From positions 1 to 42,705 of the forward strand of contig CAYOLB010000348.1 of assembly GCA_964404675.1 (NCBI GenBank): a stretch of DNA of 42,705 nucleotides, written 5' to 3'. Source of the DNA: an uncultured Atribacterota bacterium (GTDB lineage Bacteria; Atribacterota; Phoenicimicrobiia; Phoenicimicrobiales; Stramentimicrobiaceae). Positions within the stretch are counted from its first letter, which is position 1. Each line of letters begins with the position of its first letter. The position numbers and the translations under genes are program-made. Under the pieces are notes generated by a model. It ran no database searches and was not told the DNA's origin. It saw only the letters and a program-made list of their open reading frames with translations. This document shows, piece by piece, positions 1-6,838 of the stretch.

Positions 1-346
1 AGAAGATAAAAGCAAATTCATTAATGAAGCAGAGGGTTACTATAATGATGTTATCCCTGATGCAAGAGGCGAAGCCGTCGAGATTACTAAAAAAGCAGAA
101 GGTTATAAAATCGAGAGAATTAGAAAGGCTGAAGGTGATGTGGCAAAGTTTAACCAGATTCTAAAGGAATATCAAAAAGGGAAAGAAGTAACAAAGTACC
201 GCTTGTATATTGAAACCATGGAATCAATTTTGCCTGGTATGAACAAATTTATTATGGAAAACAGTGATGACGAGGGTTTACTGAAATTTTTACCCCTTAA
301 TGAACAATCATGGCAGGACGCACCGGGGAAGGAGGTTGTTCAATAA
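1..346 (+). CDS. hflK: HflK (FtsH protease modulator, SPFH/band-7 family), C-terminal fragment; 5' end lies outside the window
   Basis: The frame from nt 2 is open to the TAA at 344-346. It translates to ...GEAVEITKKAEGYKIERIRKAEGDVAKFNQ...YRLYIETMESILPGMNKFIM..., which matches the HflK C-terminal conserved block (RLYIETME). The stop overlaps the hflC ATG at 346. Confidence 0.8.
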   Translation, partial: EDKSKFINEAEGYYNDVIPDARGEAVEITKKAEGYKIERIRKAEGDVAKFNQILKEYQKGKEVTKYRLYIETMESILPGMNKFIMENSDDEGLLKFLPLNEQSWQDAPGKEVVQ

Positions 347-1324: not shown

Positions 1325-2974
1325 TTAATAGCCTTCTTCGAGGTTAATCTTATTTTTCGGCGCTTCTCCATAGAATATTCGGGAAATATTGTGATAGACA
1401 GATAGAATATTTTCTTCAATAGCCTTATCACTATAACCAGCATTGTGAGGTGTCATAATAATATTTGATAATTCATGAAAAGGATATTTGCTGGGCAATA
1501 TTTCACGATGGTTTTTATCAGGATATTGATACCAGGTATCTATAGCTGCACCTTCAAGAGTACCATTTTTTAAATTCTGGTACAATGCTTTTTCATCAAC
1601 AACCTTCCCCCTACCAATATTAATAAGGTACTTCCCTTTCATCTTTTTTAAGATATTTTCATCAATCATATTTTCAGTGCTATCAGTAAGAGGCACAGCT
1701 ATTATTATAAAATCTGATTTTTCAATAACATATTCTAATTGCTCATAATTGCCTAGAAAAGTTAACCCATATTTTTTATCTATTTTTTCTTCTCTCTGAA
1801 AAGAACGTTTAATAGCATAAATATTCATTCCGAATGACAATGCCCTTTTGGCAATTTCCAACCCGATAGAACCAAAGCCAATAATGCCTAAATTTTTTCC
1901 ATGGAGCTGTATTGTAGGTTCTTTGGTAATAAAACCATGCCATTTCCCTTGTCTCAGATCTTTATCATTGTTAACCAAATTTTTGGCCAGTGCTAATAAC
2001 AGGCAAATGGCATGTTCAGAAACAGCATGATTATTACCATGTGTGTTACATACAGTTATATTGGGAAATTTTTTAAAAGCATCTAAATATACTTTGTCCA
2101 CTCCTGCAAAGGGTATTTGAAAAAGTTTCAAGTTCTTTGCAATTCTAATGTCTTCTTCTGTTAAATCTCCTCCCACAATAATCTCAGCTTTGCTAATTTG
2201 TTTTTTCTGTTCATCTTTTTCTGGGGCTAAAAAAATTAAATTAAGTGGCAACTGACCTTTTTTATTGAATTTTTCTAACATTTCTAACCAATAATCCTGA
2301 CTGACCATTTTACTTATTATTAGAACATTCATTCTTTTACTCTTTTTTTGACCATTTATTTTTTTTGAATTCTGTAAATATTTCCGTGCAGCTACAATAT
2401 GCTTGCACTCTAAATTCCATTTTTTGCAATGGTTTTGGAAATCATAGCAATCGCATTCCGGGACTTCCAGATTAACATGGTAAATGTTATTATTATCTTT
2501 ATTTCTAACTAAGAATATATCCCCTTCTCGGGAAACATCCAGATTGTTTGCAGCCATTGCCCTACTATTCTGTTCTTCCTGAACCAATAACTTCCTTGCT
2601 AGATTATCAGCCAATTTATTTTCTTCTCTTCGATTCCAGATAAAAAAAACAGGAGCCTTAATCTCATTTAATAGTTCCTGTATTCTCTGATAAAGAGCAA
2701 CAATTTTATTATTTCTTACCTTAAACTGTTTATTCAGTTGTTTTACTACTAACTGACTATCACAATAAAATTCAATTTTTTCTGCAGGAATATCTCTAAC
2801 TTCCTCTAAGCCTTTGATTACAGCATGGTATTCAGCTATATTATTGGTTCCTTTCCCAACAATTTCATTAACTTTTTTAACCAGACTACCATCTTTATAA
2901 ATAACGACACCTATAGCCATTTTACCAGGATTTGGTATACAGGAACCATCTACTCGTACCAATAATTTTGACAT
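1325..2974 (-). CDS. Tri-domain fusion protein: N-terminal RNase H-like (RVT_3/type-1 RNase H, DEDD intact), central SWIM zinc finger, C-terminal D-isomer-specific 2-hydroxyacid dehydrogenase (NAD-binding)
   Basis: aa 1-135: VRVDGSC (D9), NNIAEYH (E48), YCDSQLVV (D72), KLADNLA (D123), the RNase HI catalytic tetrad. aa 174-192: CDCYDFQNHCKKWNLECKHIVAA, the SWIM CxCxnCxH motif. aa ~225-549: GKNLGIIGFGSIGLEIAKR (GxGxxG Rossmann), INIGRG (catalytic Arg), MTPHNAG (catalytic His). It is a single uninterrupted 549-aa ORF. AGGAGAAT sits 8 nt upstream of the ATG. Confidence 0.85.
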   Translation of the reverse strand: MSKLLVRVDGSCIPNPGKMAIGVVIYKDGSLVKKVNEIVGKGTNNIAEYHAVIKGLEEVRDIPAEKIEFYCDSQLVVKQLNKQFKVRNNKIVALYQRIQELLNEIKAPVFFIWNRREENKLADNLARKLLVQEEQNSRAMAANNLDVSREGDIFLVRNKDNNNIYHVNLEVPECDCYDFQNHCKKWNLECKHIVAARKYLQNSKKINGQKKSKRMNVLIISKMVSQDYWLEMLEKFNKKGQLPLNLIFLAPEKDEQKKQISKAEIIVGGDLTEEDIRIAKNLKLFQIPFAGVDKVYLDAFKKFPNITVCNTHGNNHAVSEHAICLLLALAKNLVNNDKDLRQGKWHGFITKEPTIQLHGKNLGIIGFGSIGLEIAKRALSFGMNIYAIKRSFQREEKIDKKYGLTFLGNYEQLEYVIEKSDFIIIAVPLTDSTENMIDENILKKMKGKYLINIGRGKVVDEKALYQNLKNGTLEGAAIDTWYQYPDKNHREILPSKYPFHELSNIIMTPHNAGYSDKAIEENILSVYHNISRIFYGEAPKNKINLEEGY

Positions 2975-3002: not shown

Positions 3003-3464
3003 TCAATACAATTCTTTTCTAAGTAATTGTTTTAACTGTTCCACTTGACTGGCAACTAATACTTGTTTTTTGTCTATATAATAATCAATCCAGGCACCTA
3101 CCTCAAAACGGAATAGTATTACCTTTTTACCATGATTTAGGGCTAATGCTATTTCTGAGATTGTTCCAGCCATACCTGGTAAGGCAATAACAATATCACT
3201 GCTTAAAATATTAATAACATTTCTTGCTAGGCCCATTCCAGTTACAATTGGGATATCAATATACTGAGATACAGAATTAGCATTGTCAGATGGTAAAACT
3301 CCCACTGTAATCCCACCGTTTTCTCTGGCACCTTTGGCTGTAGCCTCCATAACTCCGGAAGGTCTCCCGCCATTCAACAATACCCAGCCTTCCAGAGCAA
3401 TCATCTTCCCGATTTGATAGGCATATATTTCTTCATCATTGTCAACAAAGTGTGCACCACCCAT
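3003..3464 (-). CDS. LOG-family / TIGR00725-type Rossmann nucleotide-binding protein (SLOG superfamily). The true start is probably a non-ATG codon (ATT at 3489-3491) upstream of the ORF-track ATG
   Basis: Motifs GGRPSGVMEATAKGARENGGITVGVLP and ALPGMAGTISEIALAL correspond to the LOG GGGxxGLMGAxA and PGGxGTxxE signatures. The conserved N-terminal kkIIIGVmGG block lies in-frame upstream of the annotated ATG and is preceded by GGAGGA (3496-3501). Its stop is 28 nt upstream of the fusion gene start, so the two are probably one operon. Confidence 0.75.
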   Translation of the reverse strand: MGGAHFVDNDEEIYAYQIGKMIALEGWVLLNGGRPSGVMEATAKGARENGGITVGVLPSDNANSVSQYIDIPIVTGMGLARNVINILSSDIVIALPGMAGTISEIALALNHGKKVILFRFEVGAWIDYYIDKKQVLVASQVEQLKQLLRKELY

Positions 3465-3664
3465 AACACCAATTATTATTTTCTTTATAATATTATCCTC
3501 CGTTTATACTATCTTTAATATCTCTAAATCATAGTATAAAACAAATGAGATATTTAATTTTATGTATATAATATTATATAATTAATTTAATTACAAAATT
3601 ATCCAAATTATTTCCTAAAATCTGCTAGATGTAATATTTGACATTTTTTCATAAACAGCTAAAA

Positions 3665-3749: not shown

Positions 3750-4478
3750 ATGGATAAAAGAATACAATATGCCTTTGAGAATTCAGAGGTATTAAAATGG
3801 CCTAAACAACTACTCTCTTCCTTTGGGTCATCTGAGGTACATTATCATGTGTTAACTGAGCCAGTCTACCAGGAGTTTACCAAGGGTGTTAGTGAGACAG
3901 TTGTCAGAGAGGGAAAAGTAAGCTGGTACAGGCCACAGTTATTAACGCCAGACTATATTCTTAGAATCGAGGGGTTCAGTGATGAGGCAAGAAGTGCCTT
4001 TTCATCCCTGGCCAATGAAATGCCTGATATAGCAAGTATTTTATATCGTTTTCAATTTAAAAGAGAAGTTGATTCTATGAATTTCGTCAGTGGGAGCTTG
4101 GAGTCAGTCGCTGATAAGGTCTCAAGAGATATTGACAAAAGAGGCGACAATCTATCTGCAGTTATAAAAGGCGTTGGAGACTTGTGGGATATTTCTCTTT
4201 CAAAATTTATTCTTGATATGATGACCAGAAGTGCCCGACAATCCCAATTTCCTGAACTTCGAAAAAGAGGTTTGATTTCCTATAATCGATTTGGGCAACA
4301 GGTAGTCTCCAAAGATAACAGCGGGATTCCTATTGTGGCCAGGAGAGAGATTGAAGCCATGTTTGAAAAGGTCAAAAACGGAGAAATAGAACCAAAAGAC
4401 CTAAAAGGAGAATTGGATAGATGGGGTTTATTTGAAATATATCAGGATCGCTTTTTTGACCTGTTTAAAAGGAGGTAG
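3750..4478 (+). CDS. Hypothetical protein (242 aa), no recognisable family, no Cys, predicted soluble
   Basis: It is a long ORF with a GAGGGG RBS 9 nt upstream. Local GC and codon usage look protein-coding. It is the first gene of a coupled pair. Confidence 0.6.
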   Translation: MDKRIQYAFENSEVLKWPKQLLSSFGSSEVHYHVLTEPVYQEFTKGVSETVVREGKVSWYRPQLLTPDYILRIEGFSDEARSAFSSLANEMPDIASILYRFQFKREVDSMNFVSGSLESVADKVSRDIDKRGDNLSAVIKGVGDLWDISLSKFILDMMTRSARQSQFPELRKRGLISYNRFGQQVVSKDNSGIPIVARREIEAMFEKVKNGEIEPKDLKGELDRWGLFEIYQDRFFDLFKRR

Positions 4479-5164: not shown

Positions 5165-6838
5165 CTATGGTAAATCAATAATCTGAATATCTCTGGGATG
5201 GATAACAGAATAAGTAATACTGATTTCACTCTTTTCCTGGGGTTCAAGTAAGACTTCCCACATCCAGACCCCTTCTTTATCTTCCCAATTTTTTACCTGA
5301 GGCTCTTTACTAATCTTATCAATATTCACCTGGATTCTATCATCCTCAGAAACGGGCATATTTTCGAAAGTATGGCATAATGATTGTATATCCTGGTAAT
5401 TTTCAATTGTAATTTTATATTCATACTTTGTTGCAATTTTTGAGGAAGGTATAGTCGCAATCAATGTTTCATCCCTAAATTTTTTAACCAATTCCCTTTT
5501 AACTTTTAGGTTTTCTGCAATACCTAAAGAAACATCAAAATCATTTCCCGGAGGTATATAGCCTATTGATGTATTCCCGGTAAATCCCCCTTCTATAAAT
5601 ATGTTCATTTCGCCTGGTAGTAAGGGAATATCCAAATTATTATCAACATATACATTAAAATACACAAAAGAACTCTTTCTCGGATAAGCCCTGTAATTAA
5701 ACTGGCCATTCAATTTATCTTCAGATATAAAAACTTTTTCTTGGCTGCTTCCTGATGGGATAGAAACACTTTGGGGAATTTTATAGGTAACACTTGTTCC
5801 TTTATACTCAACAGGTATCAATTGTTCTTCTTCTTCGATAACAATATCTTCAGAAACTGCATCATATTCTCCCCGGGCAAACATAGGCAACATTTCTACT
5901 GATTTTTGAATATTTTCGTCAATCTTGTAAGGCCTCAAAAACCAGGGATCTATTGGAGGCAATTGTCCTGATACAGTTGGTCTGGCTGTGGATAAGGAAA
6001 TTTGTACATTTTCCCAATCTATTCCTGTTGATTGGCCAATAAGTGCATAAGTCACTATTGCAATTTTATCATTCTTCAGGTCTGTTTTTATATCATAAAC
6101 AGGACGCCAATTTATCCCATTATTTAATAGATAAGATACCAGAATACTTACATTGGTTTTTTGATATACTTCTAAATCCAAACCTATAACTTTTTTTGTC
6201 TCTCTTTGTTCATTGGAAATTTGCTGGAGTCTTTTCTGTAAAAGAGCCACTTTGTCTTGATAAGATTCTATTTGAAAATCCTGGTTTAAAAGCTGTTCGT
6301 AATTTACACTTAATTTCTTATCTAAGAAATTATAAATTGCTTCAAGCTGTTCTGTGGAAGGTATGGTATTTGTTGAATCCTGTTTTGTTCTTTGTTCTTG
6401 GAATAAATAAATAATTGAATTTAAAAATTCTTTCTTATCTTGCAGGCTATTCTTTTGCATAGTGATAATCCTTATCTTTTTTTCTAGTTCCTTAATTTCG
6501 TCCTGCAATTGTTTTATTCTGATTGATTGTTCTTCCTCAACATACAATGTTTCAACACTGACTCCTTTAATCTTTGCCAATTCATTATTATTGTCTTCCA
6601 ATTCTGCCTTGATTGTTTTTTCATCGAATTTCTCCAAAATATCATCAATGACAACACGATAAAGACCACTATCCAGCCCTATGAGGGCTTGCCTTGTCAA
6701 CATGGCAGAATTAGGATAGATATAAACATGTTTGATTTTTGAACCTGTACTAATTTCTTGCTGTAAAACAGTACATGTAAAAGAAAAAAATAACATCAGA
6801 ATAAGCGCATAAAATGTAATATTTTTTATCATCCTCAT
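5165..6838 (-). CDS. Secreted protein with signal peptide, N-terminal coiled-coil and a beta-rich C-terminal region; architecture resembles the DUF4140/DUF4139 (MuiA-like) family
   Basis: It starts MRMIKNITFYALILMLFFSFTCTV (signal peptide). Residues ~70-220 are a long K/E/Q-rich coiled-coil. The remainder is rich in Y/N/G/T. The family call rests on architecture only. Confidence 0.4.
   Translation of the reverse strand: MRMIKNITFYALILMLFFSFTCTVLQQEISTGSKIKHVYIYPNSAMLTRQALIGLDSGLYRVVIDDILEKFDEKTIKAELEDNNNELAKIKGVSVETLYVEEEQSIRIKQLQDEIKELEKKIRIITMQKNSLQDKKEFLNSIIYLFQEQRTKQDSTNTIPSTEQLEAIYNFLDKKLSVNYEQLLNQDFQIESYQDKVALLQKRLQQISNEQRETKKVIGLDLEVYQKTNVSILVSYLLNNGINWRPVYDIKTDLKNDKIAIVTYALIGQSTGIDWENVQISLSTARPTVSGQLPPIDPWFLRPYKIDENIQKSVEMLPMFARGEYDAVSEDIVIEEEEQLIPVEYKGTSVTYKIPQSVSIPSGSSQEKVFISEDKLNGQFNYRAYPRKSSFVYFNVYVDNNLDIPLLPGEMNIFIEGGFTGNTSIGYIPPGNDFDVSLGIAENLKVKRELVKKFRDETLIATIPSSKIATKYEYKITIENYQDIQSLCHTFENMPVSEDDRIQVNIDKISKEPQVKNWEDKEGVWMWEVLLEPQEKSEISITYSVIHPRDIQIIDLP

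Follow-up and report, generated by a model that had tools for sequence, protein, structure and literature searches.

An uncultured Atribacterota bacterium (assembly GCA_964404675.1, contig CAYOLB010000348.1) carries, within the 42,705-nucleotide stretch analysed here (the window), one reading frame in which a type-1 ribonuclease H (RNase H), a putative zinc finger and a D-2-hydroxyacid dehydrogenase (2HADH) follow one another. This locus raises the question whether a nuclease and a small-molecule enzyme have really been joined in one gene and, if so, whether the product is a housekeeping protein, a regulated nuclease or part of a defence system. From sequence comparison, we lean towards reading it as a vertically inherited, lineage-specific housekeeping protein with two intact enzymes on one chain.

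Architecture and distribution of the fusion family

The gene is preceded by a good ribosome-binding site (AGAGGAG), and its start codon lies 28 nt past the stop codon of the upstream gene (Table 1). The earlier note had proposed a single genuine ORF of 549 aa in which a type-1 RNase H is followed by a SWIM-type finger (CxCxnCxH) and then by a D-2-hydroxyacid dehydrogenase. This architecture was borne out, and all the residues it had cited were found at the positions given (D9, E48, D72 and D123; C174, C176, C190 and H192; G366, G368 and G371; R455 and H510).

Table 1. Features of the fusion gene and of its upstream neighbour, with positions counted from the first letter of the window.
Feature	Position	Strand	Residues	Remarks
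Fusion gene	1325..2974	minus	1-549	549-aa ORF, ATG start
Archaeal-type (Sto/Halo/LC11/Rv2228c-like) type-1 RNase H domain	2585..2974	minus	1-130	
SWIM-type zinc finger (putative)	2375..2545	minus	144-200	Ligand conservation, PF04434 as top family, AF2 secondary structure
Lys/Glu-rich variable linker	2330..2374	minus	201-215	Mean pairwise identity 0.27, low pLDDT
D-2-hydroxyacid dehydrogenase (substrate-binding and NAD(P)-binding domains)	1328..2329	minus	216-549	
Stop codon of the fusion gene	1325..1327	minus		
SLOG/LDcluster4 (TIGR00725) gene	3003..3491	minus		Upstream, probably co-transcribed

The family comprises more than 120 sequence clusters (90% identity) of about 549 aa, which are 51-88% identical and come from independent NCBI, JGI, ENA and Logan assemblies. 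The fusion is present in about 41 Atribacterota species genomes, and the named genera that carry it all belong to the class Ca. Phoenicimicrobiia (JS1); a search of 1.84 billion cluster representatives turned up a single further full-length fusion. That two genes were united by a frameshift or by a sequencing or assembly artefact has next to no probability, because the same architecture of about 549 aa recurs in all these clusters, independent assemblies and species genomes; the refutation by such an error that the earlier note had envisaged therefore fails.

A literature search for this architecture found no characterised protein or paper, in agreement with what had been claimed before, and a search for Atribacterota RNase H returned nothing relevant. 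The idea that the family is unannotated had to be dropped, as databases already label its members 'phosphoglycerate dehydrogenase-like enzyme/ribonuclease HI', 'reverse transcriptase-like protein' or 'NAD(P)-dependent oxidoreductase'. Residue conservation was counted over 119 family members (51-88% identical). Mean pairwise identity ranges from 0.54 to 0.70 for the domains, with the RNase H as the most conserved module (0.70) and the linker as the least conserved (Table 1). In the AF2 model of the full protein (pTM 0.53), the inter-domain arrangement is uncertain.

The two enzymes and the finger between them

The C-terminal part scored 163.5 bits against Pfam 2-Hacid_dh_C (gathering score 25.1, E 4e-48) and 43.4 bits against 2-Hacid_dh (gathering score 24.6), and a two-domain 2HADH fold was recovered by Foldseek (GRHPR 5aov, E 9e-24, probability 1.00; also 1wwk and 2dbq). 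Its key residues are G366xGxxG371, K389-R390 after strand beta-B, W345, R455, Y484, H510 and a C-terminal GY, among which G366, G368, G371, R455 and H510 are invariant in the 119 members. A full D-2-hydroxyacid dehydrogenase had been described in the earlier note, and the GxGxxG motif, Arg455, His510 and the Pfam scores agree with that description; however, it had missed that the Glu of the Arg-Glu-His catalytic triad is replaced by an invariant Tyr484 (DTWYQYP), which sits opposite the catalytic Glu in HMMER alignments to 2d0i and 5aov. The accessible part of a published 2HADH classification lists Gln, Lys and Trp as triad substitutions, with Tyr not among them (PMC6303947).

The Glu-to-Tyr substitution is common to at least 111 stand-alone dehydrogenase clusters, so the domain is best placed as a superfamily member with a variant triad. 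Of the 30 positions conserved to at least 85% across 111 stand-alone Tyr-variant representatives, the fusion dehydrogenase also retains 29, which argues against a decayed sensor. By its sequence, the domain belongs, intact, to a 2HADH subfamily that is widespread but unstudied and has Tyr for the triad Glu. Ordinary 2-oxoacid chemistry could be altered or abolished by this change. None of the named 2HADH equivalogs (PGDH, GRHPR, GhrA/B, FDH, D-LDH, PdxB) fits the domain, the best NCBIfam scores being 147-156 bits against cut-offs of 261-455. Formate dehydrogenase was considered for its DxW..P likeness and rejected, since FDH has Gln where Tyr is found here and the domain scores far under the cut-off of the NCBIfam FDH model. 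The probable reaction is the reduction of a small 2-oxoacid, for which K389-R390 suggest NADPH as the cofactor. The enzyme is also probably homodimeric, as are the solved 2HADHs known to us, and would thereby display two RNase H-SWIM arms.

Instead of working as an enzyme in its own right, the dehydrogenase might serve mainly to sense NAD(P)(H) or a 2-oxoacid: on binding its ligand it would close or oligomerise and so switch the RNase H-SWIM arms on or off, linking R-loop or primer removal to energy state; we consider this unlikely. The model for such an arrangement is CtBP, a 2HADH homologue that regulates via NADH-dependent oligomerisation, and CtBP structures (2ome, 1mx3 and 6cdf) are among the close fold matches in Foldseek. 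The hosts, under this reading, are slow-growing subsurface anaerobes. Strict conservation of the fusion and all its ligand-binding residues across the class is what a gated nuclease would suggest, and Tyr in place of the triad Glu could favour binding over turnover. However, the Tyr variant and the 29 of 30 positions are shared with the stand-alone clusters (at least 111), which have no nuclease to regulate, and R455 and H510 are invariant, as catalysis would require. Neither does AF2 predict a confident inter-domain interface, and in the closest precedent fusion the domains are dissociable (PMC7466739). The specific mechanism in which binding of NAD(P)H/NAD(P)+ or a 2-oxoacid alters dimer closure or the oligomeric state of the 2HADH, and thereby gates the two arms, is slightly more doubtful still. 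If such a switch were true, the redox or energy status of the cell would bear directly on the removal of R-loops or RNA primers in JS1 Atribacterota.

In the N-terminal domain, an RNase H fold was found. A complete type-1 RNase H with its four DEDD residues in canonical context had been reported, and this is supported both by Pfam (RVT_3, 59.8 bits against a gathering score of 21.6; RNase_H, 45.9 bits against 25.8) and by conservation. The four motifs are VDGSC (D9), NNIAEY (E48), YCDSQ (D72) and LADNLA (D123); D9, E48 and D72 are invariant in 119/119 members and D123 in 118/119, and all four align with the motifs of Rv2228c and Sto-RNase HI. The N-terminal ~130 residues align end to end with the 133-141-aa Halo, LC11 and Sto enzymes; like its Sulfolobus, Halobacterium and Rv2228c relatives, the domain has neither a basic protrusion nor a hybrid-binding domain. 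R116, also invariant, corresponds in the alignment to the Arg in 'PREEN' of Sto, a position which we take to be equivalent to E. coli His124. The nearest solved relative by sequence is the Rv2228c domain (3hst, E 2e-16), while homologues from Micrarchaeota are 40-46% identical to the domain. It is an archaeal-type RNase HI, predicted to be active on RNA:DNA hybrids (R-loops, primers), and would use two-metal catalysis at D9, E48, D72 and D123 to cut their RNA strand.

A substrate other than hybrids is improbable. The nuclease might act on double-stranded or otherwise structured RNA in processing or turnover, with the SWIM finger providing RNA or protein targeting; for its nearest solved relatives, Sto-RNase HI and the Rv2228c N-domain, cleavage of dsRNA in addition to hybrids has been reported. 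On the other hand, the DEDD geometry and the TNN and DSQ substrate-contact motifs are those of a canonical RNase HI, and nothing at the locus indicates RNA processing.

For the middle region, the assignment as a SWIM zinc finger holds in part. The four ligands of the signature C174-x-C176-x13-C190-x-H192 are invariant in 119/119 members, and among Pfam families PF04434 ranks first for the mid-regions of 15/15 members (best E 0.0011), but the scores always fall under the gathering score of 19.6 (13.0-13.7 bits for the fusion protein). The AF2 model shows strands at 145-150, 153-158 and 164-167 and helices at 176-186 and 190-211, so that one helix lies between the ligand pairs and C190-x-H192 stands at the start of the long helix, with pLDDT of ~50-60 around the ligands at this knuckle. 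A profile of the region searched against PDB sequences retrieved no solved relative (best E 0.5, spurious), and a homologue search restricted to residues ~119-241 yielded no scored candidates. The module is missing from two otherwise intact variants, L041 and L043; because two lineages lost or never had it, the finger is an add-on, and the RNase H and the dehydrogenase are the conserved core. Most likely it would act as a putative accessory handle by which the minimal nuclease binds nucleic acid or a partner protein.

The locus and its neighbours

The gene had been placed in an accessory-looking stretch, but its surroundings are conserved core genes. The order ligA-gatAB ... SLOG-fusion-hflCK-fba-pfk-dnaE was recovered as conserved synteny, and this core (ligA, gatAB, hflKC, fba, pfk, dnaE, polA) is kept across loci that are 51-80% identical. 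The tentative label of a housekeeping RNase HI is based on this synteny together with the conservation described above.

The upstream gene encodes an SLOG protein. Its listed start is the ATG at 3464; a conserved in-frame extension reaches back to an ATT at 3491, which therefore suggests a non-canonical start. The neighbour had been called a LOG, but the reading as a cytokinin-type nucleosidase was rejected, as the protein is much closer to Moco carrier proteins (~50% identity): it matches Pfam LDcluster4 (E 2e-47) and, among PDB sequences, 6y01 (E 2e-37) and 2iz5 (E 3e-31), in alignments that begin inside the N-terminal extension. The SLOG gene lies immediately upstream of the fusion in 32/38 loci and is gone, with the fusion retained, in 6/38. 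The stop and start codons overlap by 7 or 8 nt (-7/-8) in 8/13 loci checked, and in the window the gap is 28 nt, with no terminator-like site in the SLOG-fusion intergenic region. Judging from this gene order, the fusion gene appears usually to be co-translated with the Moco-carrier-like SLOG protein. If the dehydrogenase were a switch, the latter could be a third, small-molecule-binding partner.

Upstream of the operon no riboswitch or known RNA was detected, and promoter and terminator scans gave counts no greater than in shuffled sequence. The divergent 242-aa neighbour, nearly always found next to the locus, was also considered as a partner in function but was left out of the system, since it occurs in other phyla too and lies elsewhere in the L041 genome.

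The earlier note had leaned towards a defence or mobile island, a leaning that synteny largely refutes. In such a conflict module, sensing or processing of a nucleotide signal would fall to the SLOG protein, with the fusion as the nucleic-acid-degrading or NAD-linked effector. The adjacency of the SLOG gene in 32/38 loci and the frequent overlap of its stop codon with the start of the fusion would suit it, SLOG domains act as sensors in Thoeris-type systems (PMC9503650), and the SLOG protein has a weak PADLOC match to PsyrA (E 8e-5). We nevertheless hold this explanation to be very improbable. The fusion protein has no match in PADLOC-DB 2.0 at E <= 0.01, no phage or plasmid record covers at least 80% of it, and no integrases or transposases were found near the locus. 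Moreover, the gene keeps a fixed position amid genes for replication, translation and glycolysis even where the genomes are only 51% identical, it persists in the 6/38 loci from which the SLOG gene has been lost, and the SLOG protein resembles Moco carrier proteins, not ThsA-type sensors. The fusion gives no support to a new system of defence or NAD-linked immunity.

Returning to the housekeeping protein with two intact enzymes, catalytic coupling of nuclease and dehydrogenase is unproven, and none of the evidence requires it. Across the class, however, the fusion is strictly kept together with all its active sites, to a degree beyond what would be expected from drift alone, which leaves room for functional coupling.

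Significance and comparison with known systems

Atribacterota JS1 are uncultured and dominant in deep anoxic sediments. A conserved, class-specific enzyme of replication or R-loops, as the fusion would be, could offer a useful marker for them and a handle on their nucleic-acid metabolism. The fusion also provides a clean test of drift against regulation, with the two variants that naturally lack SWIM at hand as controls. A fusion of RNase HII with a (p)ppGpp synthetase exists in mycobacteria. If both halves are active, the present protein would join this fusion and RNase HI-CobC (PMC7466739) as a further instance, shared by a whole lineage, of an RNase H fused with a small-molecule enzyme, and it is the only one found with a zinc finger between the two.

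CtBP is likewise a 2HADH fold physically tied to a nucleic-acid-related function; however, it works through protein partners in eukaryotic transcription, and nothing found for the fusion shows sensing in place of catalysis. In transposase-derived proteins of the MULE/FHY3 type, an RNase H-fold DDE domain is followed by a SWIM CxCxnCxH motif, in the same order as here. Unlike these DDE transposase domains, the fusion has a bona fide type-1 RNase H (RVT_3/RNase_H), and it shows no terminal repeats and no mobility, its locus being fixed in core synteny.

The stand-alone archaeal-type RNases HI (Sto 2ehg/3aly, Halobacterium 4e19, LC11 3u3g) have the same DEDD residues, Arg for His124 and ~130 aa without a basic protrusion, as in the head domain of the fusion, but they are single-domain proteins of ~130-150 aa, whereas here the domain heads a chain of 549 aa. 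Among the dehydrogenases, the stand-alone Tyr variants (e.g., uncharacterised proteins of 328-332 aa from Caldisericota) are 41-46% identical to residues ~230-549 and share D-x-W-[YW]-x-Y-P, W345, R455, H510 and the terminal GY, which points to a large 2HADH subfamily, so far unstudied, with Tyr in place of the triad Glu. The nearest characterised or solved dehydrogenases are Pyrococcus GRHPR (5aov) and PH0520 (2d0i), and the C-terminal 'GY' is GhrA-like; GRHPR, PGDH and D-LDH have the triad Glu, in contrast to the Tyr of the fusion.

The closest parallel is Rv2228c/MSMEG_4305 (RnhC), the RNase HI-CobC protein of Actinomycetales, in which an N-terminal archaeal-type RNase HI is likewise joined through a variable linker to an unrelated small-molecule enzyme. 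The match to NF005567 (bifunctional RNase H/acid phosphatase) is limited to residues 2-143 (92 bits against a cut-off of 326, E 4e-26), and the fusion falls outside that family, its C-terminal part being a 2HADH instead of CobC. The actinobacterial fusion is lineage-restricted, its domains evolve at different rates, and they are dissociable in vivo, which argues that the halves of a fusion of this kind can be separable in function (PMC7466739). Lineage restriction and unequal evolution of the domains are common to both proteins. They differ in phylum, in the C-terminal enzyme (a 2-hydroxyacid dehydrogenase in Atribacterota, a histidine-phosphatase/CobC in the Rv2228c type) and in the SWIM finger between the domains, which is confined to the Atribacterota fusion.

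A class-restricted fusion in the core genome

Searching 5.8 billion protein clusters revealed more than 120 whose members are about 549 aa long and 51–88% identical to the RNase H–SWIM–D-2-hydroxyacid dehydrogenase (2HADH) fusion, with 97–100% query coverage. As they were drawn from NCBI, JGI, ENA and Logan assemblies, an assembly artefact was ruled out, including the frameshift joining two genes that the earlier note had named as a possible refutation. The organisms named were Atribacterota, Ca. Atribacteria or Caldatribacteriota, and the source names were 'phosphoglycerate dehydrogenase-like enzyme/ribonuclease HI', 'reverse transcriptase-like protein' and 'NAD(P)-dependent oxidoreductase'. 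When each GTDB species was represented by one genome, the fusion was present at about 41 loci, all from Atribacterota MAGs except one record titled just 'bacterium'. The genera named, all Atribacterota, were Sediminicultor, Stramentimicrobium and Oleihabitans, whose taxonomy is class Ca. Phoenicimicrobiia (JS1 lineage), together with Phoenicimicrobium and Sordicultor. When 1.84 billion representatives at 50% identity were scanned exhaustively with HMMER, the full-length fusion turned up in just one other representative (P0121), with one fragment besides; the remaining matches listed covered the dehydrogenase part only and were nearly all proteins of ~320–360 aa. The nearest dehydrogenase-only relatives were Caldisericota proteins (46% identical), and the nearest RNase H-only relatives were Micrarchaeota proteins of ~130 aa (40–46% identical). 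This distribution and these single-domain relatives indicate a single origin of the architecture, in which an archaeal-type RNase HI was joined to a bacterial 2HADH, followed by vertical inheritance. No published description of it was found in the literature searched, and no cut-off of an NCBIfam equivalog was reached. In a Micrarchaeales MAG (L066, 5941..7713), an RNase HI homologue begins an open frame of ~590 codons with a long uncharacterised C-terminal region; this may be a further RNase HI fusion, or else a read-through.

Gene order was conserved between loci merely 51–67% identical, comprising ligA, gatC/A/B, an MFS transporter, a divergent hypothetical of 242–244 aa, the SLOG gene, the fusion, hflC/hflK, fba, pfk, dnaE and polA. 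In the window itself, the genes that follow are gatB, gatA, ligA, a SurA-like PPIase, surE, dprA and rsmB, and further on fmt, def, priA, coaBC, gmk and yicC. The neighbourhood is core genome. The mobile or defence context suggested in the earlier note is disfavoured by this core synteny, by the lack of a PADLOC match to the fusion, and by the lack of a phage or plasmid record covering at least 80% of it. No transposases or integrases occurred among the Pfam-annotated neighbours, and no Rfam element was found upstream of the operon.

The 242-aa hypothetical, which had no Pfam, NCBIfam or PADLOC match, is transcribed divergently from the SLOG–fusion operon in almost every Atribacterota locus, and its conservation (58–90%) exceeds that of the fusion; its homologues number 942, among them a Nitrospirota protein with 51% identity. 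In one genome (L041), this gene lies elsewhere on the same 849-kb contig, and upstream of the fusion there is neither it nor a SLOG gene, an old-yellow-enzyme-like gene (judged from translation) being present instead. The DUF4139/DUF4140 gene, found in only some related loci, encodes a protein that PADLOC matched weakly to LmuB (E 3e-6) along a stretch resembling a coiled coil; the match is probably compositional.

Features of the fusion and its neighbours in the window
Feature	Position	Strand	Remarks
Fusion ORF	1325..2974	-	549 aa, ATG start
RNase H domain	residues 1-130	-	nearest solved sequences: Rv2228c N-domain (3hst), Sto-RNase HI (2ehg/3aly), LC11-RNase H1 (3u3g)
SWIM finger	residues ~144-200	-	PF04434 sub-threshold; ligands invariant
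Linker	residues 201-215	-	variable, charged; mean pairwise identity 0.27
2HADH domain	residues 216-549	-	complete; Foldseek to Pyrococcus GRHPR, E 9e-24
Tyr motif	residues 479-485, nt 1520..1540	-	in fusion
SLOG gene	3003..3464 from listed ATG; extension to 3491	-	in-frame upstream region
Conserved hypothetical	3750..4478	+	242 aa
DUF4139/DUF4140 protein	5165..6838	-	signal-peptide-like N-terminus

Domains of the fusion protein

The fusion start follows a strong Shine-Dalgarno sequence (AGAGGAG) and lies 28 nt past the stop of the upstream gene. All residues cited in the earlier note were found in place, namely D9 (VDGSC), E48 (NNIAEY), D72 (YCDSQ) and D123 (LADNLA) in the RNase H domain, C174-x-C176-x13-C190-x-H192 in the finger, and G366xGxxG371, R455 and H510 in the dehydrogenase. 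Its RNase H and dehydrogenase assignments were confirmed by Pfam scores far over the gathering scores (RVT_3 59.8 bits, RNase_H 45.9, 2-Hacid_dh_C 163.5 and 2-Hacid_dh 43.4). Mean pairwise identity was 0.70 for RNase H, 0.57 for SWIM and 0.54–0.66 for the dehydrogenase parts. As read from sequence, the chain holds two catalytically complete enzyme domains and a Cys2-Cys-His finger, all conserved, with purifying selection acting on all three modules. The inter-domain geometry predicted by AF2 is uncertain (pTM 0.53).

Both the fold and the DEDD residues of type-1 RNases H are present; D9, E48, D72, R116 and N119 are invariant in 119 fusion members, and D123 is kept in 118 of them. This domain would cut the RNA of RNA:DNA hybrids. 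It appears minimal, with neither a basic protrusion nor a hybrid-binding domain, and the SWIM finger may add nucleic-acid or partner binding. The SWIM claim itself held in part: the four ligands are invariant across fusion members and PF04434 ranked first among families in each of the 15 mid-regions scanned (best E 0.0011), but its score on the fusion was 13–14 bits against a cut-off of 19.6. The AF2 layout has three short strands, C174xC176, a helix, and C190xH192 opening a long helix, and confidence is low at the knuckle. Two loci, L041 (513 aa) and L043 (~492 aa), have no SWIM module and keep the rest, so the finger seems dispensable in two lineages. In these variants (L041 6001..7542, L043 4115..5614), a charged linker joins RNase H to dehydrogenase.

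Besides GRHPR, Foldseek matched the 2HADH domain to many PGDH, D-LDH, FDH and CtBP structures. The domain belongs to the 2HADH superfamily with a variant triad: in HMMER alignments with 2d0i and 5aov, R455 and H510 fall on the catalytic Arg and His, and Y484 (DTWYQYP) on the catalytic Glu (DVFExEP). Y484 is invariant in fusion members, and most of the nearest stand-alone representatives share the motif D-x-W-[YW]-x-Y-P. Among positions at least 85% conserved in 111 stand-alone proteins, 29 of 30 are kept in the fusion. K389 (invariant) and R390 (107/119 members) follow strand beta-B, where NAD-specific enzymes have Asp, which suggests NADP(H) as cofactor. The domain would use NAD(P)H to reduce a small 2-oxoacid, and may dimerise the protein; to our knowledge, solved 2HADHs form dimers. 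The conserved W345 falls within the Trp-containing loop of GRHPR in the HMMER alignment. In the parts consulted of a 2HADH classification, a partner-subunit Trp is thought to limit substrate size in GHRB-type enzymes, and the triad substitutions given there are Gln, Lys and Trp, Tyr not being among them (PMC6303947).

The Tyr motif was present in at least 111 stand-alone clusters (50% identity, ~320–360 aa), with holders (P0123–P0270) from Caldisericota, one Asgard archaeon and others. One JGI metagenome protein (P0246, 478 aa) joins a Tyr-variant dehydrogenase to an N-terminal domain labelled protein-tyrosine-phosphatase-superfamily by JGI, and is a second, unrelated fusion of this subfamily. 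In six of six Caldisericota loci (L048–L053), the gene for the nearest stand-alone dehydrogenase is followed directly by accD-accA, all on one strand and separated by short gaps or overlapping (e.g. L050 5869..8670); these species are closely related, so the evidence for linkage is weak. One of the top fold matches, PDB 9a5q, is an integrative model in which the 2-hydroxyacid dehydrogenase TkrA is cross-linked to RecF, a DNA-repair protein; this is an independent hint that enzymes of the 2HADH type can make contact with proteins of DNA metabolism.

The SLOG neighbour

A SLOG/LDcluster4 gene lies directly upstream of the fusion in 32 of 38 evaluable loci, and is missing there in L019, L023, L027, L028, L030 and L041. 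In 8 of 13 loci checked, its stop overlaps the fusion start by 7–8 nt, suggesting translational coupling. The generic label 'LOG' used for it before proved too loose: Moco carrier proteins (Rippkaea orientalis 6y01, E 2e-37; Chlamydomonas 2iz5, E 3e-31) matched far better than cytokinin-type LOGs (E 1e-7 or weaker; PMC7470044), and the cytokinin-type reading was rejected. Many Atribacterota loci conserve an in-frame extension, 'IIKKIIIGV', that contains no ATG, GTG or TTG and aligns with the first beta strand of solved Moco carrier proteins. The true start of the gene is probably a non-canonical codon, ATT or ATA, ahead of the listed ATG; in the window's start region (3465..3500, minus strand) ATT is at 3491, with a TAA stop and a GGAGGA RBS before it. 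In infC, a rare start codon goes with translational regulation, and the conserved rare codon of the SLOG gene may, by analogy, serve likewise.

Readings of the fusion and comparison with known systems

We lean towards reading the fusion as two enzymes on one chain, catalytic coupling of the domains being unproven. The main rival, a CtBP-like ligand-gated nuclease, draws on the strict retention of the fusion, but over 100 stand-alone enzymes show an identical active-site pattern, which makes it rather unlikely. A defence system with SLOG as sensor and nuclease as effector is hardly credible in view of the core synteny, of six loci having lost the SLOG gene and of the Moco-carrier affinity of its protein. 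The fusion is not regarded as an immune system of the novel nucleic-acid-targeting or NAD-linked kind proposed in the earlier note. It is class-wide and lends itself to clean tests, the natural SWIM-less forms serving as controls, and its dehydrogenase part belongs to a subfamily that is unstudied.

We place the protein among the bifunctional RNase H fusions. Its best precedent, Rv2228c, is an actinobacterial RNase HI-CobC protein that carries an RNase H head of this kind and is likewise lineage-restricted; the CobC domain is absent from the fusion, and membership of that family was therefore rejected. The two domains of RNase HI-CobC differ in evolutionary rate and can be separated functionally in vivo, and the authors of that work ascribed fixation of the fusion to drift (PMC7466739); this precedent makes two enzymes on one chain the default reading.
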